From an uncultured archaeon (GTDB lineage Archaea > Iainarchaeota > Iainarchaeia > Iainarchaeales > 1-14-0-10-31-34), in the NCBI GenBank assembly GCA_964608675.1, contig CAZSOZ010000004.1:1-64000 (forward strand): DNA of 64,000 nt. Direction: 5' to 3'. Made by a program: the position numbers and the translations under genes. The notes under the pieces were generated by a model. That model ran no database searches. It was not told where the DNA came from and saw nothing but the letters and a program-made list of their open reading frames with translations. Shown one piece after another: positions 2,946 to 37,888 of the stretch (its first letter is position 1; every line of letters begins with the position of its first letter).

Positions 2946-4157
2946 TTATTTTTTGAATTTTTTCATTTCCATTTTTTTGAATAATTTAATGTAGTCCATT
3001 AAATGCCTTGTAATTAAAAAATTATTTTTTACGTGTTCTTTTCCTTGTTTTCCGAGTTTTTTTCCTAGTTTTGGGTTTTCAACTATTTGAATTATTTTTT
3101 TGGCACATGTTTGAGGGGTATCAGCTAAAAAACCGGTTTTTCCGTTTAAAACTTGTAATGGAATTCCTCCTACATTGCTTGCAATAACTGGTGTTTCTTT
3201 CCATAATGCTTCGCTTATAGTTAAAGCAAATCCTTCTCTTATGGATTTTTGTATTACTGCATCAGAGCTTCTTTGCAGAACGTTAACCAAAAAACTGTTG
3301 TTTTCTGTTAAAAGAGTTATTGATTTATCATGGTTGACCATGGCTTTTATTTTATCGTAAACTTTTTTTCCTTCAGGGTCGTCGTCTGCCGTGTTTCCAA
3401 GAAGAATCAGTTTGCAGTCTGTTTTCTTTTTTGCAAGCCGAAAAGCTTTTATTGTTCCAGGAAAATCTTTCCATTTATCAAATCTTGCAATCATTGAAAT
3501 TATTGGTTTGTCTAAATCAATGCCTCTTTTTGAAAGAAATTTTTTGCATTTTGCTTCTTTTACTTCTTTGTTTTTTTCATTTAATGGGTCTATTGAAGGA
3601 TGAATTATTTGATGAGGGTTTTTTAATTTTTGAACAAATTTTTCGTGTGAAAAAATCACTGAATCATATTTTTCCACGAATTTTTTAAGGTACTGCCATA
3701 CTTCAGGATTTGGATGAGATAAATCTAAATGCAGCCTCCAAATCCATGAATGTTTTTTGTTGTAGTATTTAATTAAAGGAAGAGGCTGAGGGTCATGAAC
3801 TATTACGTAATCATGGTCTTCTATGTGCTGAATGGATGAGTTTCTTTCATTGTATTCTTCGTATATTTTCTTTTTTATTTTGCTTAAATTTATTTTTTCT
3901 CCGTGCATTGCATTATGGAATTTTTTTGTTATTCCAAAAAAATCAGGGGAGCCTGTTATTACTCTCCAGCCTGTTTTCATTCCTGTATCGTTCATTAAGT
4001 AAGCTAAACTGTTTAAGAGTTCTGCTACTCCTCCGCCGTAATGAGTTGAACTAATGTGAACAAAGTGTCTTTCTTTTAATGGCTCGGATTCAGCATAAAT
4101 TTTTTCAAGTTTTTCTTTTCCTATTATTGACTTATATTTTGGAAGAAATTTCATCAT
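2946..4157 (-). CDS. treT: TreT-like glycosyltransferring trehalose synthase (GT4)
   Basis: HISSTHYGGGVAELL, TKKFHNAMHG, VHDPQP, WRLHLD, RFDKWKD, DDPEG and EGFALTISEALWK motifs. Confidence 0.85.
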   Translation of the reverse strand: MMKFLPKYKSIIGKEKLEKIYAESEPLKERHFVHISSTHYGGGVAELLNSLAYLMNDTGMKTGWRVITGSPDFFGITKKFHNAMHGEKINLSKIKKKIYEEYNERNSSIQHIEDHDYVIVHDPQPLPLIKYYNKKHSWIWRLHLDLSHPNPEVWQYLKKFVEKYDSVIFSHEKFVQKLKNPHQIIHPSIDPLNEKNKEVKEAKCKKFLSKRGIDLDKPIISMIARFDKWKDFPGTIKAFRLAKKKTDCKLILLGNTADDDPEGKKVYDKIKAMVNHDKSITLLTENNSFLVNVLQRSSDAVIQKSIREGFALTISEALWKETPVIASNVGGIPLQVLNGKTGFLADTPQTCAKKIIQIVENPKLGKKLGKQGKEHVKNNFLITRHLMDYIKLFKKMEMKKFKK

Positions 4158-4205
4158 ATTTTTTAGGAAAGCAATCTTTAAATTAATTGCCTTTTTTTTT
4201 CAGTT

Positions 4206-6176
4206 TTATTGCTTTAATTTTTTTATTATTTCTTTGACGCCTTTTATTGAAGGATTTTCTGTTGTCTGGTTTGCAAGTTTTTTGAGTTTTTCGTCTGCGT
4301 TGGCTAATGCAACTTTAAAGCCGGGATTAACAAACATATCTATGTCGTTTTCTCCGTCTGCAATTACAATGGTTTTTTCTAAATCTATATTTAAGTATTT
4401 TGCTGCAAGCCTTACTCCCATTCCTTTATCTACTCCTTTTGGCAGAGTCATTATTTCGTCTACGTTTTGAATGAATTGAAGTTCTTCTGTTAGTTTGCCT
4501 AATGCTTTTTTTATTTTTTCTTTGTCTTCAAGCCTGTTGCTGGTTATAACTTTTCCTATTGTTGTTTTCGGCAAATTTAATTTTTTGATTATTTTTTTTG
4601 CTTTGTTCATGTATTTTGTGTTTATTACAAATGTTTTTGTTGTTCTAGGAAAAAATATTACTGCTCCGTTTTCTGCTACAATACATCTCCAAATATTTAT
4701 TTTTTTTGATAATTCTTTAACGTAATCAAATGGCCTGCCTGTTGCAAGAAACAAGTCTTTTTCAAGTTTTTTTAATTCATTTAATAATTTTATGTCTAAA
4801 TCTTTTTTGTCGAAAACTGCTTTTGGAGGCTTGTCTGTTATTGTTCTGTCAAAATCTGTTATTATTGCTTTTATTTCAGAGAAATCAAGGTGTTCTATTT
4901 TGTGGAATTCATTTTTTTCTTTTATTAGTTTGTTGTAGAGCATTAAATGTTTTTCTATTCCTTTTTCCATTTTGAATTCTTCTTCGATTATTTTAAGAGA
5001 GTTTTCTGACATTTTTTTTGCTAGTTTTTCGTCTGAAAGCACTTTAATTATTTTTTTTGAGGTATCTTTGACTGCGCCTGCTTTAACTAAATAACCATTT
5101 TTTCCGTTTTTTATTTGCAGGGGAATTCCCCCTACTTTTGTGCCTATTACTGGTTTTCCGCAGGCCATTCCTTCGCTTACACTTAACCCGAATCCTTCGT
5201 TTTTTGAACATAATGCAATTAAATCAACTGAATTGTATACTTCCGGAAGAAGAGTGTATTCAATGTTTCCTAAAAACAAGACTTTTTTTTGTAAATCTAA
5301 TTTTTTTACTAGATTTTTTACTTTTTTTGCCAGTGTTTCTCTTTCTTTTGATAGTTTGGAACTCATTGATTTTTCTCCGACAAAAACCAGTTTTGCATCA
5401 GGAATTTTTTTTAAAATTTTTGGCATTGATTTAATTAATTGTTCGTGTCCTGATTTTGAATCAACTCTTTGAACTGAAAGAATTATTTTTCCTTTTTTTG
5501 GAATTCCATATTTTTCTTTGGTTTTTTCTTTGTTGATTTCCATGGGCTTAAATAAATCTGTGTTTGCAATCGGATAAATTAATTCAGTTTTTTCTTTTAG
5601 CAGTCCTTTTTTTACTGCTGCTTTAATGTATTCAGGTGAAGAAAAAACTATTTTGTCGTATTCGTTTAAGTGTTTTATTAAAAAGTCTGACAAATGTTTT
5701 GACATTTTTGTGCTGAAGGGAATATGCCATGTTAAAATTAATGGTGTTCCTCTTGGAACATATTTGTATGTAAACAATAATTGAAAGTCATGTATGTGCA
5801 CGATGTCTGCAGGAGATTGTTCAAGCAGTTCTTTTAGTTCTTCTCCGAAATATTCATTGACTTGGTTGTAGTTTTCGTATCCTGGCATTTGATGAGCAGG
5901 TTTATTGAATTCGCTTTCTTTGTAGTGGCTTCCTTTGTATACTGCTTCTTTGAATTTGCTGTATTCCTGCATTATTTCTTTGTTGATTGGTTCTTTTGGA
6001 ACACGATGAATGTCTATTCCTTTTATTTCTGCTTTGTTTTCTTCTCCTGAAGGCCTTAAATGAACTTCAACTACGTCGTTTCCTTTTTTTACTATTTCGT
6101 TTGCTAGATTTAAAAGATAAGTGGATACTCCTCCTATATGAGGATAAAAAGACTGGCTTGCAAAATATATTTTCAT
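4206..6176 (-). CDS. GT4 glycosyltransferase fused to C-terminal HAD-II phosphatase
   Basis: GT-B motifs GGVSTY, HIHDFQ and EGFGLSVSEGMACG; HAD motifs DFDRT, ATGR, ENGA, DKG and DGENDIDM. Confidence 0.85.
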   Translation of the reverse strand: MKIYFASQSFYPHIGGVSTYLLNLANEIVKKGNDVVEVHLRPSGEENKAEIKGIDIHRVPKEPINKEIMQEYSKFKEAVYKGSHYKESEFNKPAHQMPGYENYNQVNEYFGEELKELLEQSPADIVHIHDFQLLFTYKYVPRGTPLILTWHIPFSTKMSKHLSDFLIKHLNEYDKIVFSSPEYIKAAVKKGLLKEKTELIYPIANTDLFKPMEINKEKTKEKYGIPKKGKIILSVQRVDSKSGHEQLIKSMPKILKKIPDAKLVFVGEKSMSSKLSKERETLAKKVKNLVKKLDLQKKVLFLGNIEYTLLPEVYNSVDLIALCSKNEGFGLSVSEGMACGKPVIGTKVGGIPLQIKNGKNGYLVKAGAVKDTSKKIIKVLSDEKLAKKMSENSLKIIEEEFKMEKGIEKHLMLYNKLIKEKNEFHKIEHLDFSEIKAIITDFDRTITDKPPKAVFDKKDLDIKLLNELKKLEKDLFLATGRPFDYVKELSKKINIWRCIVAENGAVIFFPRTTKTFVINTKYMNKAKKIIKKLNLPKTTIGKVITSNRLEDKEKIKKALGKLTEELQFIQNVDEIMTLPKGVDKGMGVRLAAKYLNIDLEKTIVIADGENDIDMFVNPGFKVALANADEKLKKLANQTTENPSIKGVKEIIKKLKQ

Positions 6177-6288
6177 TTTTTATCTCTTTTAATATACAAA
6201 AAGATTGTTATTATAAAATTAAAGTTTTTAAGGCAGTTTAATGCATTTCTTTTAAATTCTTATTCCAATTAATTTTTTGTGTGGTTTA

Positions 6289-7503
6289 ATGAAAAGAAAA
6301 AGCATTCCTGTTAAAGTAGGAAATATTGTTATTGGAGGAAACAATCCTGTTGTAATTCAATCAATGACAAACACGCCTACAGAAAACATTAAGGCAAGCG
6401 TTTTGCAGATAAAAGAATTAGCTGATGCAGGAAGCGAATTAGTAAGGCTTACAGTAAAAGATGATATTGGAGCAAAAGCAATTCCTGAAATCAAGAAATC
6501 TTTAATTAATGAAGGATATGAAATTCCTTTGATTGGAGACTTTCATTATAATGGTCATGTCTTGCTTACAAAATATTCTAAGTGTGCTGAAGCTTTAAGT
6601 AAATTCAGAATTAATCCAGGTAATGTTGGATTTGGAAAAAACAAGGATGAAAATTTTGAAGCAATGATTAAAACTGCAGTGAATACAGGCACTCCAATCA
6701 GAATCGGAGTCAATTGGGGTTCGTTGGATCAAACAGTTTTAAAGAAATTAATGGATGAAAACGCAGGAAAAGGAAACCCTAAAACAAATAATGAAGTTTT
6801 AATTGATTCTATTGTTGCAAGCGCACTTGAAAGCACTCAGAAAGCAAATGATTTGGGTTTAGAAAACAACATGATTGTTTTGTCTGCTAAAAGTTCAAGG
6901 GTTCCTGATATGATTAAAGCTTATGAACTGCTGGCAGAAAAATGCAGTAATTCTCTTCATTTAGGAGTTACAGAAGCAGGAGGAGGAATCAAAGGAGCAG
7001 TTCATACTGCTTCGGGTTTAAGTGTTTTGTTAAACAAGGGAATCGGAGATACAATCAGGTGTTCGTTGACTCCAACTCCTGATTCAAAGAGAACCGATGA
7101 AGTTAAAGTCTGCAGGCATGTGCTTCAAAGCCTTAAACTGCGTGCTTTTTGTCCTGAAGTCACTTCTTGTCCGGGATGCGGAAGAACTACAAGCAAAGTT
7201 TTTCAGGAAATTGCTTTAAGTATTCAAAATTTTTTGGAAGAAAAAACTCTTGAATGGAAATTAAAGGGATTCAAGGGCTTTGAAGGAATGGAAGTTGCAG
7301 TAATGGGATGTATTGTAAACGGCCCCGGAGAAAGCAGGAATGCAAACATTGGTTTAAGTCTGCCTGGAGCAGGAGAAACTCCTTCTTGTCCGGTTTATAT
7401 TGACGGAAAACAAACTGCGGTCTTGAAAGGAAACACTAAAAAATTAACTAAGGAATTCAAAAAATTAATTCAAGAGTATGTTGAAAAACACTACAAAAAT
7501 TAA
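6289..7503 (+). CDS. ispG: (E)-4-hydroxy-3-methylbut-2-enyl diphosphate synthase IspG/GcpE
   Basis: IQSMTNT, GDFHYN, RINPGN, RIGVNWGSL, HLGVTEAG, GIGDTIR, SCPGCGRT and VMGCIVNGPGE (3 Cys plus Glu Fe-S ligands). Confidence 0.97.
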   Translation: MKRKSIPVKVGNIVIGGNNPVVIQSMTNTPTENIKASVLQIKELADAGSELVRLTVKDDIGAKAIPEIKKSLINEGYEIPLIGDFHYNGHVLLTKYSKCAEALSKFRINPGNVGFGKNKDENFEAMIKTAVNTGTPIRIGVNWGSLDQTVLKKLMDENAGKGNPKTNNEVLIDSIVASALESTQKANDLGLENNMIVLSAKSSRVPDMIKAYELLAEKCSNSLHLGVTEAGGGIKGAVHTASGLSVLLNKGIGDTIRCSLTPTPDSKRTDEVKVCRHVLQSLKLRAFCPEVTSCPGCGRTTSKVFQEIALSIQNFLEEKTLEWKLKGFKGFEGMEVAVMGCIVNGPGESRNANIGLSLPGAGETPSCPVYIDGKQTAVLKGNTKKLTKEFKKLIQEYVEKHYKN

Positions 7504-8354
7504 ACTGTAAAAGTTTCTATTGCTGTAGGATAACTTTTTTTGAGTTCTTTAATTGTTTTTTTTGACTCTTTTTCTGTTTTTGGAAAACAGAACACAGTGC
7601 TTCCTGAACCGCTCATTAAAGCATTAAAAGAATTTTTTTTCATTTTTTCTTTTAGTTTTTTTATTTCAGGAAAATCTTTTAAAACAGAGAATTCAAAATC
7701 GTTGTGCATTAATCCTGCAAGTTCTTGAATTTTTCTTTTTTTTTCTATTTCTTTTTTTAGTGTTCTTGAAGCAAGAGTTTTTCCTGATTTTTTATAGTTT
7801 ATTTTTGAATAGGCTTTTGGAGTGGAAACAGGTATTCCGGGATTGCAGATTAAAATCCTTGTTTTTGGGAAAGATTTTATTGGCAGAATTTTTTCTCCTC
7901 TTCCTGAAGCAAAAGCAGTTTTGCCGTATAAAAAGAAAGATGTATCCATTCCAATGCTTTCAGCTGTTTTTTGCATTTCTTTTTTTTTCATTTTTAACTG
8001 CCATAATTCATTTAATCCTTTTATTGTTGCGGCTGCATTACTGCTTCCTCCTCCAAGACCTCCTGCTACAGGAATTTTTTTGTTTATTTTAATTTGAATT
8101 CCTTGTTTGACTTCAAATTTTGTTTTAATTAATTCTGTTGTTTTCCAGCATAAATTTTTTTCGTTTAATGGAATTTCTTTTTTATTGCATTCAATTTTAA
8201 TTTTGTTTTCTTTTAATTCTTTTAAGGTAATTTCGTCTTTTAATTCGAGTTCCTGCATTATCATTTCTAATTCATGATAGCCGTCTTTTCTTTTTTTAAT
8301 TATGTCCAGAGTTAAATTGACTTTTGCAGGAGAATCAATTTTTAGTTCTTTCAT
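7500..8354 (-). CDS. ispE: 4-diphosphocytidyl-2-C-methyl-D-erythritol kinase IspE
   Basis: SPAKVNLTLDI..R.DGYHEL, KIPVAGGLGGGSSNAA, GMDTSFF, GRGEK, VSTPKAY, HNDFE and MSGSGSTVF. Confidence 0.95.
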   Translation of the reverse strand: MKELKIDSPAKVNLTLDIIKKRKDGYHELEMIMQELELKDEITLKELKENKIKIECNKKEIPLNEKNLCWKTTELIKTKFEVKQGIQIKINKKIPVAGGLGGGSSNAAATIKGLNELWQLKMKKKEMQKTAESIGMDTSFFLYGKTAFASGRGEKILPIKSFPKTRILICNPGIPVSTPKAYSKINYKKSGKTLASRTLKKEIEKKRKIQELAGLMHNDFEFSVLKDFPEIKKLKEKMKKNSFNALMSGSGSTVFCFPKTEKESKKTIKELKKSYPTAIETFTV

Positions 8355-9006
8355 TTAAATCACTGTATTCTATTATTCTTACGTCGACTGCAAGAACTTC
8401 TTTTTCGTTTGCAATTAATGGATTAATATCTATTTCTTTTATTTTTTCTTTCATCATTAAATTATTTACTTTTATTAAATTGTTTTCTAGTTCTTTGAAA
8501 TTAATGCTTTTTTGTCCGCGGATTCCTTTTAGAATCGGATAACCTTTGATTTCGGTTATCATTTCTTTTGCGTCTTTTTTTGTTATTGGACAAATTCTTA
8601 TTGAAACGTCTTTCATTAATTCAACAAAAATTCCTCCCAATCCAAACAAAATTACGGGGCCAAATTGTCTGTCTTGTTTTCCTCCGATTATTACTTGTTT
8701 TCCTTTAATGAATTTTTGTATAAACATTCCTTGTATTTCTGCTTTTGGAGCATTTTTTTTAATGTTCTTTAAAATTAAATCATATTTTTTTTGTGCTGTT
8801 TTTTTGTTGGGTATTTTAAGTTCTACTCCGCCTACATCGCTTTTGTGGCTTATTTCTTTTGAAATTATTTTTAGGGTTATTGGGTACCCTATTTTTTTTG
8901 CTGTTTTCAGCATTTCTTTTTTTGTTTTAACCAGTTTTCCTTTTACAAATTTTATTCCATGTCTTTCAATTAATTTTTTTGATTCAATAAAATTCATTTT
9001 AATCAT
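8335..9006 (-). CDS. ADP-forming acetate-CoA ligase beta (ATP-grasp) subunit
   Basis: GYPITLKI.S..ISHKSDVGGV, DRQFGPVILFGLGGIFVE, LKGIRG and EIDINPL. Confidence 0.9.
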   Translation of the reverse strand: MIKMNFIESKKLIERHGIKFVKGKLVKTKKEMLKTAKKIGYPITLKIISKEISHKSDVGGVELKIPNKKTAQKKYDLILKNIKKNAPKAEIQGMFIQKFIKGKQVIIGGKQDRQFGPVILFGLGGIFVELMKDVSIRICPITKKDAKEMITEIKGYPILKGIRGQKSINFKELENNLIKVNNLMMKEKIKEIDINPLIANEKEVLAVDVRIIEYSDLNERTKN

Positions 9007-9114
9007 TTGATTTAAGTGTTTTAGTTAATTTAAATTTTTATGTTCAAAAAACACATTATTTTAAATTAAACCCTTCTTTTTTTATTTAAAATAAAAAAAA
9101 AGAGGTATTTTTTT

Positions 9115-10377
9115 ATGGCTAAATTAACTGCTTTAGGAGGCGCACAAGAAGTCGGAAGAAGTTCTTTTCTGCTTGATGTCGGAGAAAAAATTTTATTGGA
9201 CAGAGGAATAAAATTAGGTTCTGATGAAACCGAGTTTCCTTTGCCGGTTAAAACTAATCTTGATGGTATTGTTATTTCTCATGCGCATTTAGATCATTCA
9301 GGAAATCTTCCTGAATTATACAATAAATCAAATCCTTTTGTTTATATGACTCATCCTACTTTGGATTTAAGCAAGATTTTGTGGCTGGATTCACTTAAGA
9401 TTGCAAAATTTGAAGGCATTGACCCTGAGTTTTCAACTGAAGAAATAAAGAAAGTTATAAATAATACTTTTACTTTGCCTTACAGAAAAAAAGTTTTTTT
9501 GGGGGAAAGCAGTTCAATTGAATTATTTGATGCAGGGCACATTCTTGGTTCGTCTATGGTTAAAGTTGAATCCAAAGAAAAAAGTGTTGTTTATTCAGGA
9601 GACTTTAAAATGCAGGAAACAAGATTGTTTAAGGGAGCTGACAAAAAAATTGGAAACGCTGATGTTTTAATTATTGAATCAACTTACGGAGACAGAAGCC
9701 ATCCTGAAAGAAAAGAATTAGAAAAAGAATTTGTTGAACAAGTTAATGAAACTATTGCAAGAGGAGGTTTTGCTATGGTTCCGGCTTTTGCTGTGGGAAG
9801 AAGCCAGGAATTAATTGACATTCTGCATGAACATAAAGTTGACGCTGAAATTTTTTTTGACGGCATGGGGCAGAAAGCAGCAGAAACAACTTTGTTGTAT
9901 CCTGAATTATTAAAGAATCCAAAGAGTTTAGGGAAAGCTTTGCATTCAGCTCACTGGATTAAAAAAGGAAAAAGAAAGCCTGCAATAGACAAGCCTTCTG
10001 TTATTGTTACTTCTGCCGGAATGCTTGAAGGAGGTCCAATAATCTGGTATTTAAAGAAGCTTCATAAAGACAAGAATTCAAAGATTTTTCTTACAGGCTA
10101 TCAGGTTGAAGACACTAATGGAAGAAAATTAATGGAAAAAGGAGTAGTTGATTTGGATGGAGAAAGAGTTAAAGTTGAAAACCAAGTCCAGTGGTTTGAT
10201 TTTTCTGCTCATGCATCCAAAGAAGAATTAATTGAGTTAACTAAAACAATAAATCCTGAATTGGTTGTATGTGTTCACGGAGACCCTGAAATAATCACTG
10301 GTTTTCAGGGAATGTTAAAAAGAGAAGGATTTAATTCTGTTGCACCAAAATTAGGGCAGGAAATAAAATTTGATTGA
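9115..10377 (+). CDS. Beta-CASP metallo-beta-lactamase ribonuclease (aCPSF2-like)
   Basis: LGGAQEVGRS, HAHLDHSG, AGHILGS, ESTYG, FAVGRSQE, FSAH and VHG. Confidence 0.9.
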   Translation: MAKLTALGGAQEVGRSSFLLDVGEKILLDRGIKLGSDETEFPLPVKTNLDGIVISHAHLDHSGNLPELYNKSNPFVYMTHPTLDLSKILWLDSLKIAKFEGIDPEFSTEEIKKVINNTFTLPYRKKVFLGESSSIELFDAGHILGSSMVKVESKEKSVVYSGDFKMQETRLFKGADKKIGNADVLIIESTYGDRSHPERKELEKEFVEQVNETIARGGFAMVPAFAVGRSQELIDILHEHKVDAEIFFDGMGQKAAETTLLYPELLKNPKSLGKALHSAHWIKKGKRKPAIDKPSVIVTSAGMLEGGPIIWYLKKLHKDKNSKIFLTGYQVEDTNGRKLMEKGVVDLDGERVKVENQVQWFDFSAHASKEELIELTKTINPELVVCVHGDPEIITGFQGMLKREGFNSVAPKLGQEIKFD

Positions 10378-11144
10378 AAATGAATTTTTTCATTGATTCA
10401 TTGAAAAATTCTTTGACTGCATTAAAAGATGAACCAAAACTTTTTTTGCCAAAAATTTTTCTTTCAATTTTGTGGGGAAGCCTTCTTTTATACAACGTTA
10501 ATCTTTTTTTTAGAATTCAGGAATTAACTGTTCTGCCTGAAAACATTTTTTTTGAATTAATTTTATTTTTAATTATTTTTTTTGTGTTTTTTGTTTTGGA
10601 TTCAGTTATTAATTCTGCTTATCCTTTAATGATTGAAAAATACCTTAAAAAACAAAGTTTTTCTGTTTTGAATTCAATTAAATTTGTTTTAATGAATTTT
10701 TTTAAAATAGTTTTTCCTGTAATGCTGGTTTCTGTTGTAATTTTTTTTGTTTTGATTCCGTTTGTTTTAATTTTTTCTTTTTTTTTAATGCAAAAAAATT
10801 TTTTTCTTTTGATTTTTTCAGGTTTAATTGTTTTATTAGTGAGTTTTGTTTTAGTGGTTTTGTTTTATTTTATTTATCCGGTTGCTTCAATTGAAAGAAA
10901 AGGAATTCCTTCAGTTTTTAATTCAATTAAAAAATCCAGAAAAAAATTAAGAGAAGCTTCTTTTGGTTCTTTTATTCTGCTTTTATTAAGTTTTGTTTCT
11001 GCTGTCATTGTTTCTTTAGAGCAGGCTTCTGCAGTTAGTTTTATAGCATTATTTTTCTTTATTTTATTAAGGATTTTAACTGCATTGTTTTCAACTTATG
11101 CAATGGTTTTAAACCCTGTTCTTTATTTCAAAAACGAAAAATGA
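10374..11144 (+). CDS. Multi-pass membrane protein of unknown function
   Basis: About 6 hydrophobic helices; in operon context. Confidence 0.7.
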   Translation: MKMNFFIDSLKNSLTALKDEPKLFLPKIFLSILWGSLLLYNVNLFFRIQELTVLPENIFFELILFLIIFFVFFVLDSVINSAYPLMIEKYLKKQSFSVLNSIKFVLMNFFKIVFPVMLVSVVIFFVLIPFVLIFSFFLMQKNFFLLIFSGLIVLLVSFVLVVLFYFIYPVASIERKGIPSVFNSIKKSRKKLREASFGSFILLLLSFVSAVIVSLEQASAVSFIALFFFILLRILTALFSTYAMVLNPVLYFKNEK

Positions 11145-11150: not shown

Positions 11151-11849
11151 ATGAGTTTTAAGTTTTGTCCTGAATGCGGAAACAGAAAAGGCCCTTTTAT
11201 TAAAGGCTTCTGCAAAGAATGTTTTCTGAAAAAATATAATCCTTTAATTTTTCCTGAAAGAATTGATTTAAGTTATTGTTCAAGATGCAGTAAAATTAAA
11301 ATTCAAAGAAACTGGATTGAATTGAATTCAATTGAATTAATTGACTTCATTAAAAGCAAAATTAAATCAAAGGAAGCAGAAATTCAGGGCATTGAAGTTG
11401 AATTAGAAAAAGTAAACGAAAAAAACTTTAATGCTTTTCTTAAAGTTAAAACTTTAATTGATTCAATTCCTCTGCTTTTGCATAGCGTAATAAAATTAAG
11501 GCTTGTTTCAGGAATATGCGATGCATGCATGAAAATTTCTTCTGATTATTTTGAAGCAACAATCCAGTTAAGGTTTTCCAGGGATTTTAAAGAAAAAAAA
11601 AGGGTTTTGGATAAATTTCAGGAATTAATTAATGAAATGAATAAATCTGATGCTTTGGCAAGAATTGTTAAAATAAATAAATTAAAGAACGGTGTTGATT
11701 TAGTTTTAAGTTCTAATCGTGCAGCAAAAGTTTCTTCTGAAAGAATTGCAAAAAAATACAATAAAAAAATAACGCGTTCTTTTTCTGTTGTCGGCACAGA
11801 CAAAACAGGAAAAGAAAAAAGAAGATACACTTACTGCATTAGGTTTTAA
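11151..11849 (+). CDS. NMD3-family ribosome export/biogenesis protein
   Basis: Four CxxC pairs followed by YFEATIQLR. Confidence 0.85.
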   Translation: MSFKFCPECGNRKGPFIKGFCKECFLKKYNPLIFPERIDLSYCSRCSKIKIQRNWIELNSIELIDFIKSKIKSKEAEIQGIEVELEKVNEKNFNAFLKVKTLIDSIPLLLHSVIKLRLVSGICDACMKISSDYFEATIQLRFSRDFKEKKRVLDKFQELINEMNKSDALARIVKINKLKNGVDLVLSSNRAAKVSSERIAKKYNKKITRSFSVVGTDKTGKEKRRYTYCIRF

Positions 11850-14681: not shown

Positions 14682-15251
14682 TTAAATTAAAAGCATTAAA
14701 GTTAATCCTGTTATAACAGGAATAGTGTAATTGTCTTCTATTGGAAGGTATTCTGCTGACATTCCAAGTACTGCTGCAGTTAAAGCAGTTGAAATAGGAA
14801 ACAAAATTAACAAATAAACAAAGGAAACAAGAATTCCTGTAATGCTTCCTTCTAAAGTTTTATTGTGAATTTTTGTTTTTCCTATTAGTTTTCCAAAAAC
14901 AGTTGAAAAACTGTCTCCGAACACTAAGGGAATTACTGCGCCAATTAAAATTAATATGTTGTTGTAAAACAGAATTCCTGCTAAAAGTGTTCCTCCAAAA
15001 AAAGTTAATGCTCCTTTTCCAGGAATTTGTTTTTCGGTTTTTCTTCCTGCATAATTCAATAAAATGTTTATTTGTTTGTTTATTATTGGAATACTTTTTT
15101 TTTGTTTTATTTTAAGTGAAATAAAATATCCTGCAAAAAGAATCAGCATGTTTGCAATCAAAAAATTTTGGCTTCCAAGAATTCCTATCAGCAGAATTAT
15201 AATGCATCCAAAAAAATAATGAAAAAACTGTCTTCTGAATTCTTTTTTCAT
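14682..15251 (-). CDS. Dolichol/phytol kinase-like membrane protein (CTP-dependent polyprenol kinase family)
   Basis: EFRRQFFH, FGDSFSTVFGK.IG, KTLEGS and EDNYTIP. Confidence 0.8.
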   Translation of the reverse strand: MKKEFRRQFFHYFFGCIIILLIGILGSQNFLIANMLILFAGYFISLKIKQKKSIPIINKQINILLNYAGRKTEKQIPGKGALTFFGGTLLAGILFYNNILILIGAVIPLVFGDSFSTVFGKLIGKTKIHNKTLEGSITGILVSFVYLLILFPISTALTAAVLGMSAEYLPIEDNYTIPVITGLTLMLLI

Positions 15252-18169
15252 TTTTTTGTTCCCTGCAAAATTATTATAACTGAAATTAAAATTAAAATTA
15301 TTCCAATAAAATTTGTTTCCGGCAGGTTTTCCAGTTTGTTTTCTGCCGGCAGAACCCAAAAATGGTCTTCTAATACATCGTTTATTGGTTGTTTGTCTTT
15401 TATTGGCCCGCTTCCGCTGACTAAATAAGCTGTTGCTACAACTCTGTATGGATTGTTTTCCAGTATTTCTGTAATGGATGTATCAAAGTCAACTGAAAAT
15501 TCTTGTTGTTTGTTGGATTTAGTTATTTTTGTTTCAGAAAAAATTTCTGCAATAAAGTTTCCTTCTTCGTCGAATACTTCAAATCCAACTTGAGTGTTTA
15601 AATCAACTTTGTATTTGTCTAAGTATTCGCTTGGAGTCATTTTGTTTGTTATTACTGCTCTGAATTCAACTAGATTGTTTTTTGGAACTTTAGGAGGAAT
15701 TACTTCAAATGAATCCATTCTAAGTGAATCAGGTCTTATAACATAAATGTATGTATCGCCTCTTATTAATACATTTAAAGAATCAGGATAATATTTTTTG
15801 TCTATTATTGTTGCCATGTTAATGGGTTTTTTTCCTGTTTTACTGCATTTAATTATTGCACTTGATGTTACGTCTTCGTTAACTGGATTAGTGGGATTGA
15901 ATTCAGAGTCCGTTAATCTGCATCCTTGTTGTTCTGGATATTGACAGTCTTCTTCTATTGGACCGCATTCACTTGAATAAACAATCCATTTAATTTCCTG
16001 AATGTCTGCTATGGCTGGTTCATTGTCAACTGCTTTTCCTGAAATAGTTGAATTTTCATCAATTATTGCATAATATGGAGCATTCAAGTCTGCTCTGAAA
16101 TCCAATACATATACATCAACTTTGTCTGCATGAAGTTTGCTTGTTTGAGGATCTGTTCCATAATAAATTAATGTTCTGTGTCCTGGTGTATCACATACTA
16201 AATCGTTTTTTGCAGTTATTTTTTGGTAGTCTTTAGTAATGCTTTCAGTAGTTTGAGAGTTTGGCATGATACAGCTTGTATCAAAATAGTTTTTGGTTGG
16301 ACGGTTCATTAAAACATCAAGAATGCATTGAAATAATCCTTCATTGTTTAATCCGTCTTTGCATACTACCCATGCTTTTTCGTGCCCGCCTGATCCAAAA
16401 GCAAAATAATGGTTTGTATCTGTTTCATAATTCCTTAACCCAAAAGCTTGTGCAAAAATTTGTACTCCGAACATTCCCATGTAGGCAGGTCCTTTTAAGT
16501 CAATGCCCGGCGGACCCTGATCTTCAATAAAACTATCAGGAGACTGGACTTCAAAAGAATTAATATCCAGAATGTTTGAATTTATTTCTGTTGAATTATT
16601 TCCTGCATCAGTTATTGTAATATTAAAATCTCTTGAACCTAATTTATTGCATTTTATGTCTGCATAAAAATGCATTTGGTTTACGTCTTCAAAATTCAAA
16701 GGAGTGTAATTTGGTTCATTATATCTTACTTTTAGTCTGGGTCTTTTGTCTGCTGAAGAATTGCATGAAGCAATATCAGTGTATTTGTTCTGCCAATCTG
16801 CTTCAAGAATCCAGCCGGAATATTTTATGGGGTTTTCATTTAATTGAAGCTGAAGGGAATTCGTTACATTCAAGGTTTTTTGAACACTGCTTAAATAATA
16901 ATTTGATATTCCTGAAACCAGATTAGAAGAATCTTCAGGAGTACTTTTTTTGTCTGCACAAGTTGAATTCCCGCAGTCTCCATTATAAGTATTAAATGTT
17001 CCTGAATCGTCTCCTGTTAGTCCGGTTCCTGCATTCTTCCAAAAGTTTCCTGACATCCAGTTATTCCAGTTTGCTTCATTGGCTTTCCAGTCATATTTCC
17101 ATAAATGGTATGCAAACAAATCGTTATGTGAGTCAGTTGGAGATGAATCAGTAAATGAATTAATATATAAATCGAGTTCAGCTAAATCAATTAGTGCATC
17201 AACAGGAATTCCTAAATCTTTGAATCTAATTAATCCTTTTTTATAATAGCCTTCTCCTCCGGAAAAATAAGCGTCAACTTCCATTAAAACTGAAGAACCA
17301 TAATTTGCAGTTGGATTAGCTTTAGAAATAAACGTGTCTTCGCATCCTGAATAAAATCCTGTTTCATTTTTGAATACTTTTGTTTTTAACGGTAATTCAA
17401 ATTTTTTATGATGGGAAGAATAAATTGTTGTAATTAAATCATCTGAAATCAGGTTTTTTGATAAATCAGTTATTCCTGCACTAATTATTTCGCAGTCGTC
17501 TGCTACTTTTACTTCAAATGATCTTGCATAATAATCTTCTTCCCATAATGTTTCATTTGTATCCCAGACTTTAATGAAATGGTTTGTGTCTTGTCCTGCT
17601 ATTGCCCAAAAATAATTAAAGTCATACAAAGGAGGAATTTCTGTTCCTGAAAGAACAGTAAAAGTTAAGTTTTTTCTTTTAGAATCTTCTTCATCAAAAG
17701 CGTAAGGAGAATCTTTAAGGCAGTAATCGCCTCTTGCTTCAACTGCATATTCTCCTGGAGCAGGGCAATTTAATGTCATTTCTGTTTTAAGTTGTCCAAT
17801 ACATGTACCAAAACCTTCAGTGTATGTGTTTTCTGCTGAATATTCTTTCAGAGTGCATCCTGCTGGAGGCTTAAACATGTTGGCATCCTGTCTGTTTCCT
17901 CCGTTTTCGCAGACATTTTCTGAAATATTATATGTCTGCCATAATACTCCTGGTTTATATCCTCCTAAAATGCAGTAGTCTTCGTCAGGGAATTCATCTA
18001 AGCTGGTGAAAGAGTATTCCATGTATAAAGTAAAATCTTGTCCTGCAATAATTGGCTGGCTGAAATCAAAATTGTATTCTTCTGGAGGCGCCCAGTTTTC
18101 TGCAAGAAAACCAGCATTAACTAAATTAAAGAAAAGAAATAAACACAAAACAAAAATTATTTTTTTCAT
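15248..18169 (-). CDS. Large Cys-rich cell-surface protein with DNRLRE-like domain and C-terminal membrane anchor
   Basis: Signal peptide; EDTFISKANPTANYGS..L.V..KGLIRF..L.IP..A.I..AEL.LY...RPRLKV pattern; C-terminus LPETN plus TM plus KK. Confidence 0.7.
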   Translation of the reverse strand: MKKIIFVLCLFLFFNLVNAGFLAENWAPPEEYNFDFSQPIIAGQDFTLYMEYSFTSLDEFPDEDYCILGGYKPGVLWQTYNISENVCENGGNRQDANMFKPPAGCTLKEYSAENTYTEGFGTCIGQLKTEMTLNCPAPGEYAVEARGDYCLKDSPYAFDEEDSKRKNLTFTVLSGTEIPPLYDFNYFWAIAGQDTNHFIKVWDTNETLWEEDYYARSFEVKVADDCEIISAGITDLSKNLISDDLITTIYSSHHKKFELPLKTKVFKNETGFYSGCEDTFISKANPTANYGSSVLMEVDAYFSGGEGYYKKGLIRFKDLGIPVDALIDLAELDLYINSFTDSSPTDSHNDLFAYHLWKYDWKANEANWNNWMSGNFWKNAGTGLTGDDSGTFNTYNGDCGNSTCADKKSTPEDSSNLVSGISNYYLSSVQKTLNVTNSLQLQLNENPIKYSGWILEADWQNKYTDIASCNSSADKRPRLKVRYNEPNYTPLNFEDVNQMHFYADIKCNKLGSRDFNITITDAGNNSTEINSNILDINSFEVQSPDSFIEDQGPPGIDLKGPAYMGMFGVQIFAQAFGLRNYETDTNHYFAFGSGGHEKAWVVCKDGLNNEGLFQCILDVLMNRPTKNYFDTSCIMPNSQTTESITKDYQKITAKNDLVCDTPGHRTLIYYGTDPQTSKLHADKVDVYVLDFRADLNAPYYAIIDENSTISGKAVDNEPAIADIQEIKWIVYSSECGPIEEDCQYPEQQGCRLTDSEFNPTNPVNEDVTSSAIIKCSKTGKKPINMATIIDKKYYPDSLNVLIRGDTYIYVIRPDSLRMDSFEVIPPKVPKNNLVEFRAVITNKMTPSEYLDKYKVDLNTQVGFEVFDEEGNFIAEIFSETKITKSNKQQEFSVDFDTSITEILENNPYRVVATAYLVSGSGPIKDKQPINDVLEDHFWVLPAENKLENLPETNFIGIILILISVIIILQGTKK

Positions 18170-18956: not shown

Positions 18957-19053
18957 TTCTATTAAAAATGAAAAGAAAAGAATTTAAATACAGAAACGCA
19001 TACTATTTTACTATCATAAAACATTTATGAATATAAAATGGTGGTTTTTTTTG

Positions 19054-20157
19054 GTGGAAAAAGAAATCAGGGTTGCGGTTGCAGGAGTAGGAAATTGTGC
19101 TTCTTCTTTGGTTCAGGGAGTTCATTATTATAATGCGGTTTTAGGGTCTGATGAATTGGTTCCTGGTTTAATGCATAACGTTTTTTCTGGATACAAAATT
19201 TCAGACATTAAATTTGTTTCTGCTTTTGATATTGATAAAAGGAAAGTCGGAAAAGATTTAAGCAAAGCAGTTTTTGAAAAACCTAATTGTACTCCGGTTT
19301 TTCAGAAGGAAATCCCTGAATTGAATGTGCAGGTAAAGAAGGCGCCGGTTTTGGATGGTTTTGCTTCTCATTTAGAGGATTATCCTGAAGATAAAAGATT
19401 TGTTGTTTCAGATGAAAAAGCAGTTGACGTGACAGAAGAATTAAAGAAAGCAAAAACAGATGTCTTGCTTAATTTTATGCCTGTTGGTTCAGAGGAAGCA
19501 ACAAAATATTATGCTAAAGCTTGTCTTGATTCAGGGACAGGAATGGTTAATTGTATGCCTGTTTTTATTGCTTCTCATTCTGAATGGGAAAAAAAATTCA
19601 GGGACAAAAAAATTCCAATTGTTGGAGACGATATTAAATCTCAGGTTGGAGCAACAATAACTCACAGAGTTTTAACTAAACTTTTTTCTGACAGAGGAGT
19701 AAAACTTGACAGAACTTATCAATTGAATACAGGAGGAAATACTGATTTTTTGAATATGCTTGAAAGAAAAAGACTGAAAAGCAAGAAGATTTCTAAAACT
19801 GAATCAGTTCAATCTCAGCTTCCGCAAAAAATGAATGCAGATGACATTCATATTGGTCCAAGTGATTATGTTCCGTGGCAGAAAGACAATAAAGTTTGTT
19901 TTATTAGAATGGAAGGAAGAAAGTTTGGTGATGTTCCTTTGGAATTGGAAATGCGTTTGAGTGTAATGGATTCTCCTAATTCTGCAGGAATAACAATTGA
20001 TGCTTTAAGGGCAATTAAAGTGGCTAAAGATAGAGGCATTGGAGGAGAATTAACTTCTTGTTCTTCGTATTTTATGAAGCATCCAATGTATCAGTTTCCT
20101 GATTCTGTATGCAAGACAATGGTTGAAGAATTCATTAAAGGAGAAAGAGACAGATGA
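19054..20157 (+). CDS. ino1: myo-inositol-1-phosphate synthase
   Basis: GVGNCASSLVQG, GDDIKSQVGAT, QLNTGGNTDFLN, SKKISKT, GPSDYVPW and DSPNSAG. Confidence 0.95.
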   Translation: MEKEIRVAVAGVGNCASSLVQGVHYYNAVLGSDELVPGLMHNVFSGYKISDIKFVSAFDIDKRKVGKDLSKAVFEKPNCTPVFQKEIPELNVQVKKAPVLDGFASHLEDYPEDKRFVVSDEKAVDVTEELKKAKTDVLLNFMPVGSEEATKYYAKACLDSGTGMVNCMPVFIASHSEWEKKFRDKKIPIVGDDIKSQVGATITHRVLTKLFSDRGVKLDRTYQLNTGGNTDFLNMLERKRLKSKKISKTESVQSQLPQKMNADDIHIGPSDYVPWQKDNKVCFIRMEGRKFGDVPLELEMRLSVMDSPNSAGITIDALRAIKVAKDRGIGGELTSCSSYFMKHPMYQFPDSVCKTMVEEFIKGERDR

Positions 20158-20747
20158 TTTCTGAAAACAGGGAAAAGTTCAAGAGTATTTCAATCAAAAC
20201 CGGCTTGATTTTTGGAAAGCTTCCTCTTTCGCCTAATCAATGGACTCTTTTTTCTTTAATCCCCGCTCTTCTGACTTTTTATTTTTTAGTTAAACAAAAT
20301 TTTGTTTTTGCAGTGTTTTTTTTTGCAATAGCTGCGTTTGTTGATGTAATTGATGGTGCGGTTGCAAGAGTGCAGGGAAAAACAACAAAAAAAGGCGCTT
20401 ATCTTGACACTATCATTGACCGTTATGTTGAATTAATTGTTTTTTTAGGGTTATTTTTAATTCAATTGCCTTTCTTTTATTTTTCTTCTCAGTTTTGGAT
20501 TTTATTGTGTTTATTTGGAAGCATGATGACTACTTATTCTAAGGCAGCAGCAAAAGAAAAATTGTTGTTGGAAAGAGAATTGAAAGGCGGTTTAATGGAA
20601 AGGCCTGAAAGACTAATTTTATTATTCTTAATCATTTTAAGTGGAATTTTTTCCCTGCAATACCTTGTCTATTTGCTTGCATTGTTTGCTGTTCTTACAA
20701 ATCTTAGCGCCTTGCAGAGAGTTTTGAAAGCTTTTTCTTTGGCTTAA
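20154..20747 (+). CDS. CDP-alcohol phosphatidyltransferase (probable archaetidyl-/phosphatidylinositol-phosphate synthase)
   Basis: SPNQWT; DVIDGAVAR...GAYLDTIIDR signature; GLMERPER; overlaps ino1. Confidence 0.9.
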   Translation: MISENREKFKSISIKTGLIFGKLPLSPNQWTLFSLIPALLTFYFLVKQNFVFAVFFFAIAAFVDVIDGAVARVQGKTTKKGAYLDTIIDRYVELIVFLGLFLIQLPFFYFSSQFWILLCLFGSMMTTYSKAAAKEKLLLERELKGGLMERPERLILLFLIILSGIFSLQYLVYLLALFAVLTNLSALQRVLKAFSLA

Positions 20748-21997
20748 CTTGCTGTTGGGTTAACAACTTTTCCCATGAATAGAATGCTTTCTGTTGAATT
20801 TTCTTGGATTATAAAAATAAAAGGATGATCTGCCTTAAAAATTATTGGTTCAGAAGGCCCTGTACTTGTATATCCCACTATAACTCCTGTTGCTGCTGTA
20901 GCTTCTGTTCCTTCTTCATCTACCTGAACAAAAGATTGGTGGATTACTTTGCTGATGAAAAGGTTTTCGTTTACTTTGCTTGAATCAAACATTCCAGTGA
21001 AATCTGCATTAGAATTGAAAGCTGTAGGCATTCCTATTTCAGATAATATATTTCCAATGAAATATTTTGTTTCAAACTTGAATTTTGGAAAATAAACATA
21101 AACTTCTTTTTTGTGCATTGTTTTTTTCCATTCATTCAGTTTTTCTGTTGAAAGCATTGATTCAATTTTTTTTAAGTCATTTTTTGGAAGCAGTACAATC
21201 ATGGACAGGTTTTTTCCTTTATAAGGCATTTCAAGTATTTGGAGTTCTTCTGTTTCACTGTAATTGAATTTTTCTGAGTCTTCTTTTAATCTCATCATGT
21301 CTGCCTGAACGATTGTATTTTCATTTACTTTAAAGTCTTCTTTTTTTGTTTTGGTTTTGTCAAATTTAATTGTCCAGTCTCCTTTGAAGTAAATTGCATT
21401 AGTTAAAACTAATCTTGTTGTTGGATTAAGTGTTCCTGAAGGAATCAAATCCTTTATTTTGTCATTTGTTTTTTCTTCCACCCAGGAATTAATTGTTTTT
21501 CTTGATTCTTCTGTTTTATTTACAAAATTTAAGTTAGTTAATTCAGCTGAATAATAATTTTTTGTTGTGTTAATATAATTTTCCAGAAAAGGAAAGTTTT
21601 TTTGAGCCCATAAAGCGTTTGCAGTTGAAAGCTGATATTCAGAATTTTTTTTGTTTAATAGATTGTGTAGTTTTGCAAAAGAACTTCTTCTATCTAAATC
21701 ATTTTCCTGAAAATTTAATGTATTTCTCATTTCTTCTGCAGTCTGCCCTTTTGCTCCTTCATAAGTCATGGCTAAAGCTGAAGAAATGCTCCAAGGAGAA
21801 AAAAACAGGTTTTGTCCTTCTTTATTTAATTTTGAATACATTTTTAATGCAAATTCATTGTTTCCTTTTACTGTTTCTTTTATTCCTGTTTCAGTTGCTT
21901 TAGAGTCATCCAGAATTTGTTCTTCTAACGGTGCAGGATCAATACATCCAAAAAATAAAATACTTAAACTTAATACAATTAAAATTTTTGAGTTCAC
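20744..21997 (-). CDS. Serpin (serine protease inhibitor), lipoprotein
   Basis: FFGC lipobox; NLFFSPWSIS, INSWVEEKTNDKI, NAIYFKGDW, hinge VDEEGTEATAAT and FKADHPFIF. Confidence 0.95.
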   Translation of the reverse strand: MNSKILIVLSLSILFFGCIDPAPLEEQILDDSKATETGIKETVKGNNEFALKMYSKLNKEGQNLFFSPWSISSALAMTYEGAKGQTAEEMRNTLNFQENDLDRRSSFAKLHNLLNKKNSEYQLSTANALWAQKNFPFLENYINTTKNYYSAELTNLNFVNKTEESRKTINSWVEEKTNDKIKDLIPSGTLNPTTRLVLTNAIYFKGDWTIKFDKTKTKKEDFKVNENTIVQADMMRLKEDSEKFNYSETEELQILEMPYKGKNLSMIVLLPKNDLKKIESMLSTEKLNEWKKTMHKKEVYVYFPKFKFETKYFIGNILSEIGMPTAFNSNADFTGMFDSSKVNENLFISKVIHQSFVQVDEEGTEATAATGVIVGYTSTGPSEPIIFKADHPFIFIIQENSTESILFMGKVVNPTAS

Positions 21998-34906: not shown

Positions 34907-36307
34907 ATGAAGAGAACTCATTATTGCGGGGAACTGGCTGAAAAAGATGAAGGAAAAAAAGTTGTTTTAGAAGGCTGGATTCACAGCATAAGAAACCAGA
35001 AAAAATTTGCTTTTATTGATTTAAGGGATAGAACAGGTTTTACTCAGTTGTTTGTTTCAAAAAAAGATAAAAAAACACAGGAAATGGTTGATTCTTTTTT
35101 GAATGAATTTGTTTTAAGAATTCACGGCATAGTAAAAAAAAGACCTGATCCTAATCTAAAGATTTCCACAGGCAAAATTGAAGTTAGTGTTCAGGGAATT
35201 CAAGTTTTGAATCCTTCAAAACCTGTTCCTTTTGCTGTTGAAGATGAAGTGAAAGCAAACGAGGACACAAGATTAAAGTACAGGTATTTGGATTTAAGAA
35301 GGCCTAAAATGTTTCAGAATCTGCTGTTAAGACATAAGGTAATTAAAACAATGAGAGATTTTTTTGATTCACAGGGTTTTCTTGAAGTTGAAACCCCTGA
35401 ATTATCAAAGAGCACTCCTGAAGGCGCAAGAGATTATTTGATTCCAAGCAGAAAATTTCAAGGCAAATTTTTTGCTTTGCCTCAAAGCCCGCAGATTTAC
35501 AAACAGCTTTTGATGGTTGCAGGAATAGATAAATATTTTCAGATTGCAAAATGTTTTCGTGATGAAGATTTAAGAGGGGATCGTCAGCCTGAATTCACTC
35601 AATTGGATTTGGAAATGAGTTTTGTTGAAGAAGAAGACATTTATTCTTTAATAGAAAAAATGATGCAGTATGTTTTTGAAAAAGCATTGAATGAAAAAAT
35701 AAAGATTCCTTTTCCTAGAATGGCTTATGCTGAAGCAGTTAAAAAATATAAGACAGATAAACCTGATACAAGAAAAGAAACAAAACAAAAGCATTCTTTT
35801 TTGTGGGTAATTGATTTTCCTTTGTTTGAAGAAAATGAATTAAAACAGGTTGTACCTTGTCATCATCCTTTTACTCAATACAACAAAGAAGACGAAAAAT
35901 TGTTTGATTCAAGAAACAAAAATGAATTGTGTTCGATTAGAAGCCGTTCCTATGATTTGGTTTTGAATGGAACAGAATTAGGAAGCGGTTCAATAAGAAT
36001 TTATAATCAGGGCTCCCAGCAAAAAATATTTGATTTTTTAGGGATAACTAAAAAAGAAGCAGAACAAAAATTTGGTTTTCTGCTTAAAGCATTTCAGTAT
36101 GGTTGTCCTCCTCATGGGGGTTTTGCAATAGGATTAGACAGACTGTTAATGATTTTAACTGAAAGCATTTCCATAAGAGAGGTAATTGCTTTTCCAAAAA
36201 ACAAGCATAATGTTTCTTTGATGGAGGAAGCTCCAAGCACTGTTGAAAAAGAGCAGTTAGATGAACTTGGAATCAAAATAAAAAAAGAAAAAAAAGAATT
36301 AGAATAA
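34907..36307 (+). CDS. aspS: Aspartate-tRNA ligase, bacterial type, without GAD insertion domain
   Basis: MKRTHYCGEL, RLKYRYLDLRR, STPEGARDY, LPQSPQ, FRDEDLRGDRQPEFTQLD, HHPFT and PPHGGFAIGLDR. Confidence 0.93.
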   Translation: MKRTHYCGELAEKDEGKKVVLEGWIHSIRNQKKFAFIDLRDRTGFTQLFVSKKDKKTQEMVDSFLNEFVLRIHGIVKKRPDPNLKISTGKIEVSVQGIQVLNPSKPVPFAVEDEVKANEDTRLKYRYLDLRRPKMFQNLLLRHKVIKTMRDFFDSQGFLEVETPELSKSTPEGARDYLIPSRKFQGKFFALPQSPQIYKQLLMVAGIDKYFQIAKCFRDEDLRGDRQPEFTQLDLEMSFVEEEDIYSLIEKMMQYVFEKALNEKIKIPFPRMAYAEAVKKYKTDKPDTRKETKQKHSFLWVIDFPLFEENELKQVVPCHHPFTQYNKEDEKLFDSRNKNELCSIRSRSYDLVLNGTELGSGSIRIYNQGSQQKIFDFLGITKKEAEQKFGFLLKAFQYGCPPHGGFAIGLDRLLMILTESISIREVIAFPKNKHNVSLMEEAPSTVEKEQLDELGIKIKKEKKELE

Positions 36308-36342
36308 AAAAAAAATTTGACTGCTCTGGCAAAGAAATGCTG

Positions 36343-37837: not shown

Positions 37838-37888
37838 CGTTAATTCCTTTAAAAATATTAATGCATTTAAATTTATGAAAGTGGTTTA

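Follow-up and report, generated by a model that had tools for sequence, protein, structure and literature searches.

Why would an archaeon carry genes for the bacterial route to isoprenoids? The route by which cells make isoprenoid precursors is a textbook difference between archaea, which use mevalonate, and bacteria, which use methylerythritol phosphate (MEP), and it figures in debates on the lipid divide and on how the first cells metabolised. Here, we analysed a stretch of 64,000 nucleotides from an uncultured archaeon (assembly GCA_964608675.1, contig CAZSOZ010000004.1, positions 1 to 64,000; in the following, the window), in which a preliminary description had noticed the MEP genes ispG and ispE at 6289..8354. 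We consider it highly probable that a complete, horizontally acquired bacterial MEP pathway took over the supply of isopentenyl diphosphate (IPP) and dimethylallyl diphosphate (DMAPP) from the ancestral mevalonate pathway in the genus to which this genome belongs. The use of MEP in place of mevalonate is already known in other DPANN archaea. What appears new is the probable phylum, a genus-wide replacement of mevalonate beside mevalonate-using sister genera, a strict either/or pattern across the order, and the retention of archaeal lipid enzymes.

The ispG and ispE genes are intact

The ispG gene (gcpE), encoding the synthase of 4-hydroxy-3-methylbut-2-enyl diphosphate (HMBPP), lies at 6289..7503 on the plus strand. 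Its open reading frame (ORF) spans 6277/6289-7503; the public gene call likewise begins at the ATG at 6289 and gives a long-form protein of 404 aa, ending with the TAA at 7501-7503. The protein scores 365 bits on Pfam GcpE (PF04551), 424 on NF001540 (cut-off 345) and 365 on TIGR00612 (cut-off 280). Aligned over its full length (residues 1-401) with 2y0f_A, a solved GcpE chain of 406 aa (476 bits), it has C294, C297, C341 and E348 opposite C297, C300, C343 and E350 of that chain. These three cysteines and one glutamate we take to be the [4Fe-4S] cluster ligands, and a full-length IspG with all its ligands, as first described, is borne out by the scores and by this alignment. In length, sequence and ligand positions the protein resembles the bacterial GcpE/IspG of the solved 406-aa form (2y0f/4s38, presumably from Thermus thermophilus); unlike the latter, it is encoded by an archaeal genome, in a genus without detected flavodoxin. 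Its predicted function is the reduction of methylerythritol cyclodiphosphate (MEcPP) to HMBPP.

On the opposite strand, ispE (7500..8354, minus strand, 284 aa; start at 8354, reverse-complement stop at 7500-7502) encodes the kinase of 4-diphosphocytidyl-methylerythritol (CDP-ME). Among the NCBIfam models, TIGR00154 matches with 248 bits (cut-off 138.7), six narrower IspE models stay under the cut-offs set for them, and the models for homoserine kinase and mevalonate kinase give far lower scores. K11 (in PAKVNL), D136 (in GMDTSFF) and the loop P95-VAGGLGGGSS-105 align with the solved IspE chains 2v2q, 4dxl and 3pyd; they are presumably the catalytic lysine and aspartate and the Gly-rich, phosphate-binding loop that the preliminary description had pointed out. 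Both genes are intact frames with conserved active-site residues. The convergent arrangement and the 4-bp overlap reported for them also hold, with both stops falling within one common TTAA.

The genome holds a complete MEP pathway

The genome that contains the window (G000) comprises 1,206,741 bp in 53 contigs and is 94.4% complete with 0.64% contamination. It encodes all seven MEP enzymes (Dxs, Dxr, IspD, IspE, IspF, IspG and IspH), each over its curated cut-off, so that the proposed search for the remaining genes dxs, dxr, ispD, ispF and ispH recovered every one of them. Scores in bits, with cut-offs in brackets, are 716 (466) for Dxs, 509 (316) for Dxr, 215 (181) for IspD, 150 (116) for IspF and 327 (188) for IspH. 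On the minus strand of a 364-kb contig, dxr, a 145-aa ORF, ispD, ispF and dxs stand in a row, flanked by the genes for a D-aminoacyl-tRNA deacylase (archaeal-type, 249 bits, under the cut-off of 272) and for pyruvate,phosphate dikinase. The ispH gene is located on a 267-kb contig beside archaeal-type MiaB-like-B, ferritin and superoxide dismutase genes.

The mevalonate pathway, by the same kind of search, was not found. Hydroxymethylglutaryl-CoA (HMG-CoA) reductase (PF00368) had no match in G000 or its five congeners, and four of four archaeal control genomes were positive. A whole-genome PF00288 search of G000 yielded no GHMP kinase other than IspE; since IspE is the sole GHMP kinase found, there is no sign of a GHMP-family mevalonate kinase, mevalonate 3-kinase or related decarboxylase. 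These results speak for the earlier suggestion that this lineage builds its isoprenoids through MEP.

Two further genes touch on these pathways. The 145-aa ORF between dxr and ispD (G000:C1:232523-232960, minus strand) had no match in NCBIfam, the only collection searched. An AA_kinase gene of the window (43192-44103) was considered as a leftover isopentenyl phosphate kinase of the mevalonate pathway and rejected; it is a carbamate kinase.

From precursors to archaeal lipids

What would such a pathway feed? Because the genome has seven MEP genes, shows no mevalonate genes and has kept geranylgeranylglyceryl phosphate synthase (GGGPS), CDP-archaeol synthase (CarS), an enzyme resembling digeranylgeranylglyceryl phosphate synthase (DGGGPS) and prenyl synthases, MEP most likely supplies IPP and DMAPP for archaeal ether lipids. 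In the working that we propose, pyruvate and glyceraldehyde-3-phosphate would be converted into IPP and DMAPP by Dxs, Dxr, IspD, IspE, IspF, IspG and IspH. A short-chain trans-prenyl diphosphate synthase would then make geranylgeranyl diphosphate from them, and GGGPS, the DGGGPS-like UbiA enzyme, CarS and an archaetidylinositol-phosphate-synthase-like enzyme would lead on to the archaeal ether lipids, while the cis-prenyltransferase UppS would provide the polyprenol carrier. Of these proteins, GGGPS scores 274 bits on NF003198 (cut-off 247) and 207 on TIGR01769 (cut-off 162), CarS 172 on NF003114 (cut-off 148) and UppS 128 (cut-off 110). The UbiA protein (G000:C2:54749-55438) has DGGGPS (NF009521) as its best match, with 179 bits against a cut-off of 296, and the trans-prenyl synthase is IdsA-like and under the equivalog cut-off.

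The two [4Fe-4S] reductases, IspG and IspH, need a source of electrons. Flavodoxin (PF00258) was found in none of the six genomes of the genus, though NCBIfam calls this IspG 'flavodoxin-dependent', and the alpha domain of 2-oxoacid:ferredoxin oxidoreductase (POR_N) is present in all six. Since no flavodoxin was found, ferredoxin is the presumed reductant; reduced by 2-oxoacid:ferredoxin oxidoreductase, it would probably feed both enzymes.

Distribution of the two pathways across the order

Is the replacement confined to a single genome? The genus consists of six species-level genomes (G000-G005), and MEP genes are present in all of them (one IspG is cut by a contig end), HMG-CoA reductase in none. 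In the three sister genera of the family the situation is reversed, with MEP in 0/3 and HMG-CoA reductase in 3/3. The genus is thus a clean case, with seven MEP genes, no mevalonate genes found and the archaeal ether-lipid enzymes kept. We infer that mevalonate is the ancestral state and that MEP was gained.

The same contrast recurs in the order, which holds 196 of the 215 species genomes of the phylum. IspG was found in 32/196 genomes at E <= 0.001 (31 over the cut-off), Dxr in 30/196 over the cut-off and IspE in 30/196 at E <= 1e-20; HMG-CoA reductase is present in 128/196 and GGGPS in 158/196, both over their cut-offs. HMG-CoA reductase occurs in 0 of the 30 genomes with Dxr; the figures stand for a pattern and do not count separate events. 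Among the same 30 genomes, 28 have IspG, 29 IspE and 28 GGGPS, and the two without GGGPS have a completeness of 81% and 74%. In 22 further genomes, Dxr matches were weak or partial (19 weak ones in family f2, one weak in G011, partial ones in G170 and G194), and G170 combines its partial Dxr, under the cut-off, with HMG-CoA reductase. Neither pathway was found in 38 genomes, mostly of families f2 and f31, which have no HMG-CoA reductase, no Dxr over the cut-off, and GGGPS in 0/22 and 1/7 genomes, respectively. Outside the order, Dxr was found in 0 of the 19 remaining genomes of the phylum.

The flip between MEP and mevalonate seen in the window's family is repeated between two genera of family f24 and again between G166 and G167, which belong to one genus. 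The exclusive distribution suggests that the cell tolerates either precursor pathway and does not keep both, and the swap appears to have occurred more than once in the order. We go one step further only tentatively, and regard it as a serious possibility rather than a probability that bacterial MEP genes have repeatedly and completely replaced mevalonate in this order (probably Iainarchaeales), down to the level of genus and species (G166 vs G167), from at least two unrelated IspG lineages and with the ether-lipid machinery retained throughout. If this were true, the order would be a natural experiment showing that one precursor pathway can freely take the place of the other beneath an archaeal membrane, and Iainarchaeota would join the DPANN lineages with MEP.

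Some genomes of the order stand apart. In 19/22 genomes of f2, ORFs of ~380 aa resemble Dxr weakly (E from 1e-4 to 1e-20; e.g. G040:C1:96788-97216 and G066:C19:16686-17783), in a family without IspG, HMG-CoA reductase or GGGPS; these ORFs may be a divergent reductoisomerase of other function. Three genomes, G027, G098 and G144, have a short-form IspG (e.g. G144:C1:643978-645006) and HMG-CoA reductase, no Dxr over the cut-off and no IspE, and this lone IspG beside the mevalonate pathway has no obvious role.

Origin of the MEP genes

The order holds two forms of IspG, the long form of the window and a short one (337-370 aa, 38-40% identical to the window IspG), which stands in tandem with ispE in two genomes. 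The two forms are split with 100/100 support, and this split alone means that there are at least two IspG lineages in the order. In an LG+C20 tree of 55 rows, all DPANN-associated long-form IspG fall into one clade (94/94). To it belong the IspG of the window genus and of three further families of this order, together with entries labelled Woesearchaeota or 'Candidatus Mic...'; entries with the labels Deltaproteobacteria, Rickettsiales, Gemmatimonadetes and Melainabacteria fall outside. For the sister of the genus clade, support in this tree is 57/33; the quick and the careful tree place it differently, neither of them with support. A 150-row FastTree gives no resolution at the base of the long-form clade, and a single clade for the long-form IspG of the order is compatible with the data in an approximately unbiased test (p = 0.216).

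Within the genus, IspG is 73-78% identical, the beta-CASP RNase encoded nearby 72-80%, and the top GatE matches 71-77%; since its identity resembles that of these two proteins, IspG is constrained like a housekeeping gene. Outside the genus, identity falls to at most 61% for IspG and at most 47% for IspE. Judged from the sequences, the MEP acquisition is older than the genus and fully ameliorated. The named relatives of IspE belong to Nanoarchaeota, Woesearchaeota, Bacillota (Paenibacillus, Desulfuribacillus), Limnocylindrales and Nitrospinae. A scan of named genomes with IspG gave 2 loci, so that the labelled genomes do not point to a particular donor. The convergent layout had been taken to hint at separate acquisition or rearrangement. 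The pair is convergent throughout the genus, and beyond the genus IspG and IspE have different nearest named relatives; a separate acquisition of the two genes is not shown by this.

Conservation of the locus

Directly upstream of ispE, on the same strand, lies the gene for an ATP-grasp_5 protein, the beta-type part of an ADP-forming acetate-CoA ligase (acdB, 8335..9006, minus strand; PF13549, 232 bits), whose best NCBIfam matches are archaeal acyl-CoA ligases, every one under its cut-off. The overlap of ispE with this gene, noted before, amounts to 20 bp, and because the two genes share a strand and overlap they are likely co-transcribed. The layout, with ispG and ispE converging and acdB behind ispE, is kept in G001, G002, G003 and G005, and in G004 up to the contig end. 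A named metagenome-assembled genome (MAG; L025, labelled Candidatus Iainarchaeum archaeon) has it as well, flanked there by the TreT gene, acdB, the beta-CASP gene and the next ORF. The block of acdB, beta-CASP gene, 256-aa ORF, NMD3 and a helix-turn-helix gene is family-wide and includes the sister genera without ispG and ispE. Two sister genera have an aminotransferase gene downstream of acdB, at the place that ispE takes in the window genus. These class I/II aminotransferase genes are at 8093-9307 in L064 (G006:C1) and at 4108-5283 in L066 (G008:C1), and in G006 an IS200-type transposase lies ~1 kb beyond.

Weighing the explanations

Several points weigh against a MEP pathway that replaced mevalonate and now feeds the ether lipids. 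For this uncultured organism, enzyme activity and flux into lipids are predictions from sequence, and no RNA runs holding the stretch are listed. At 94% completeness, an absence from G000 means 'not found'. The related genomes of the order are not independent samples, and the exclusivity count therefore overstates the separate events. In G005 (10 contigs), the ispE match (G005:C2:307946-308790) is split over two frames with internal stops, and dxr (G005:C9:80898-82028) has one TGA inside; these breaks may be an assembly indel error or gene decay. Further downstream, the DGGGPS-like, IdsA-like and archaetidylinositol-phosphate-synthase-like proteins all stay under their equivalog cut-offs. Glycerol-1-phosphate (G1P) dehydrogenase (PF13685) had no match in G000 and was found in four archaeal control genomes, so that the glycerol-1-phosphate backbone is without an identified source and lipid synthesis may be incomplete or host-dependent. 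The loss of this enzyme has been placed in the Iainarchaeota-Micrarchaeota ancestor (PMC12892359), which agrees with G000.

Could the locus be an artefact, in which bacterial ispG and ispE DNA was joined to archaeal contigs or binned with them? The genes are of bacterial type, and MAGs can be chimeric. Only one independent contig runs the full length of 5800-9300, a Logan contig of 32,777 bp with 0 differences. Since the microbial-mat run behind it may be the source sample, it was assembled independently, though perhaps not from independent data. In run X2, some bins are uncovered, including around 7500. Against this, the junctions recur in five other genomes of the genus and in one named MAG, and a second sample from that study yielded 0-difference fragments that run across the ispE/acdB junction. 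The 110-kb contig of ispG and ispE itself bears fibrillarin, Nop5, GatE and NMD3, and the five other MEP genes sit on two further large contigs beside archaeal genes. With GC of 0.28-0.36 and GC3 (third codon positions) of 0.16-0.24, the MEP genes have the composition of the remainder of the genome (GC 0.323; mean GC3 0.25 in ORFs >=300 aa), and the contamination estimate is as low as given above. The congener synteny and the 0-difference contig exclude the chimeric assembly at the junctions that the preliminary description had allowed for, and we regard an artefact of assembly or binning as extremely improbable. It would diminish the result in another way if the genome came from Woesearchaeales or Micrarchaeota, DPANN lineages for which MEP is on record, with nothing new even by lineage. 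Some genus-level relatives are indeed labelled 'Candidatus Micrarchaeota archaeon' (P0004, P0129), although MAG submitter labels are unreliable; the NCBI organism labels of the relatives conflict (Iainarchaeum, Diapherotrites, Micrarchaeota, 'archaeon') and were taken as a majority vote only. Among 120 listed GatE relatives, 16 are labelled, 8 as Diapherotrites, 1 as Iainarchaeum, 2 as Micrarchaeota, 1 as Woesearchaeota and 4 as 'archaeon', and the nearest named IspG locus bears the Candidatus Iainarchaeum label. The phylum is small, with the 196 of 215 species genomes in one order, a pattern that presumably fits Iainarchaeota in GTDB and not Nanoarchaeota or Micrarchaeota. HMG-CoA reductase in 128/196 genomes agrees with the mevalonate genes reported for Iainarchaeota (PMC10936187) and Diapherotrites (PMC6107057), and ispD and ispF are separate, in contrast to the fused form of Woesearchaeota subgroup J (PMC8421398). 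A lineage already known for MEP thus seems unlikely to us, and with good confidence we assign the genome to the phylum Iainarchaeota (Diapherotrites).

A different doubt concerns the use of the pathway. It might be kept for 1-deoxyxylulose 5-phosphate in vitamin synthesis, or for MEcPP or HMBPP in signalling or host exchange, with lipids or their precursors scavenged. That G1P dehydrogenase was not found would fit such a use, as would the common host dependence of DPANN archaea, the three genomes of the order with IspG and HMG-CoA reductase and without Dxr or IspE, and the published MEP Woesearchaeota described as being without GGGPS and DGGGPS (PMC8421398). G000, however, encodes the pathway without a gap as far as IspH, and with it GGGPS, CarS, prenyl synthases and UbiA enzymes, and in the order GGGPS tracks either precursor pathway, with 28/30 MEP genomes set against 0/22 in f2 and 1/7 in f31. 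The other purpose for HMBPP or MEcPP that had been considered at first is thus not needed for G000; it may fit G027, G098 and G144. For the window genome we hold such a use to be distinctly improbable, and prefer the supply of ether-lipid precursors.

Relation to published DPANN systems

The MEP pathway of Woesearchaeota was reportedly described by Castelle and Banfield in 2018. Other published work extends the list. MEP enzymes in a few DPANN genomes were ascribed to transfer from FCB-group bacteria in PMC6107057, the same paper that reported mevalonate genes in Diapherotrites. Among Woesearchaeota, Castelle et al. (2021, PMC8204110) found MEP to be widespread in 52 genomes that form a monophyletic clade, and Huang et al. 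(2021, PMC8421398) reported it from subgroups F and J, with fused ispD/F, Firmicutes affinity and no GGGPS/DGGGPS. Oxygen-deficient zones gave MAGs of Woesearchaeota and Nanoarchaeota with MEP and, in the same work, Iainarchaeota MAGs with mevalonate genes (PMC10936187), and a study of 2025 added the Micrarchaeota orders Norongarragalinales, Zaosheniarchaeales and Micrarchaeales, stating that MEP had formerly been detected only in Woesearchaeales (PMC12892359). The novelty of MEP in DPANN, as first put, was thus overstated, given the reports for Woesearchaeota (PMC8204110, PMC8421398), Nanoarchaeota (PMC10936187) and Micrarchaeota (PMC12892359). Since the phenomenon is published for other DPANN groups, what the present case adds is breadth and a comparative system that is tractable; the principle is not new. 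For Iainarchaeota or Diapherotrites, we found no report of MEP in the accessible literature, whose supplementary tables or figures may list such genomes.

How does the window genus compare with these systems? As in Woesearchaeota, a bacterial pathway was horizontally transferred into small DPANN genomes and stands in place of mevalonate, and the long-form IspG of the genus and those labelled Woesearchaeota share the clade with 94/94 support. The two differ in several respects. Woesearchaeota subgroup J has mostly fused ispD/ispF and is reported to be without GGGPS/DGGGPS (PMC8421398), whereas G000 has two separate ORFs and GGGPS, CarS and a DGGGPS-like enzyme; its ispG and ispE are convergent and apart from the other five MEP genes, and the phylum is probably a different one. 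In Micrarchaeota, MEP is likewise described as complete and transferred, in a phylum otherwise with mevalonate and archaeal lipid genes (PMC12892359), and the IspG labelled 'Candidatus Mic...' groups with the long-form IspG of two other families of the window order. That study does not, in its accessible portion, name Iainarchaeota as MEP carriers. In the window order, MEP and HMG-CoA reductase are mutually exclusive (0/30), a comparison that covers this order and not Micrarchaeota.

Other genes of the window

Beyond acdB, a beta-CASP RNase gene (9115-10377, plus strand), an ORF of 256 aa without a family (10374-11144, plus strand) and NMD3 (11151-11849, plus strand) follow. The archaeal neighbourhood described at first holds for NMD3 and the beta-CASP RNase; of the aCPSF1 model, the latter matches only positions 175-627 of 631, with a score under the cut-off. 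Further along on the plus strand are an inositol-3-phosphate synthase gene (19027-20157; PF01658; TIGR03450, 470 bits, cut-off 638) and a CDP-alcohol phosphatidyltransferase gene (20154-20747; PF01066), whose best match is archaetidylinositol-phosphate synthase (NF040950, 139 bits, cut-off 180). The archaetidylinositol-phosphate-synthase-like enzyme would be a downstream consumer of CDP-archaeol.

Directly upstream of ispG, at 2946-6176 on the minus strand, a TreT-like glycosyltransferase gene is paired with one for a 656-aa fusion of a GT4 glycosyltransferase and a HAD-IIB phosphatase. The TreT-like protein scores 410 bits on the Thermococcales trehalose synthase model (cut-off 775), and the pair has the look of compatible-solute synthesis. 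L025, the one named relative with enough upstream sequence, has a close counterpart for the TreT-like gene only; the GT4-HAD fusion gives there a weak cross-match of 31% onto the TreT-like gene and nothing else.

The window also encodes a full-length serpin of 417 aa (20744-21997, minus strand; PF00079, 425 bits), here in a DPANN archaeon. At 34907-39184 on the plus strand there are three consecutive ORFs resembling class-II tRNA synthetases of the Asp/Lys/Asn type, the middle one of which (36608-37837) is without an anticodon-binding domain. Two minus-strand genes encode proteins that may be secreted or exposed at the cell surface: one (685-1476) combines a staphylococcal-nuclease and a lamin-tail domain in a fusion with a lipoprotein-like N-terminus, and the other (15248-18169) is a 973-aa protein with a CBM96 module.

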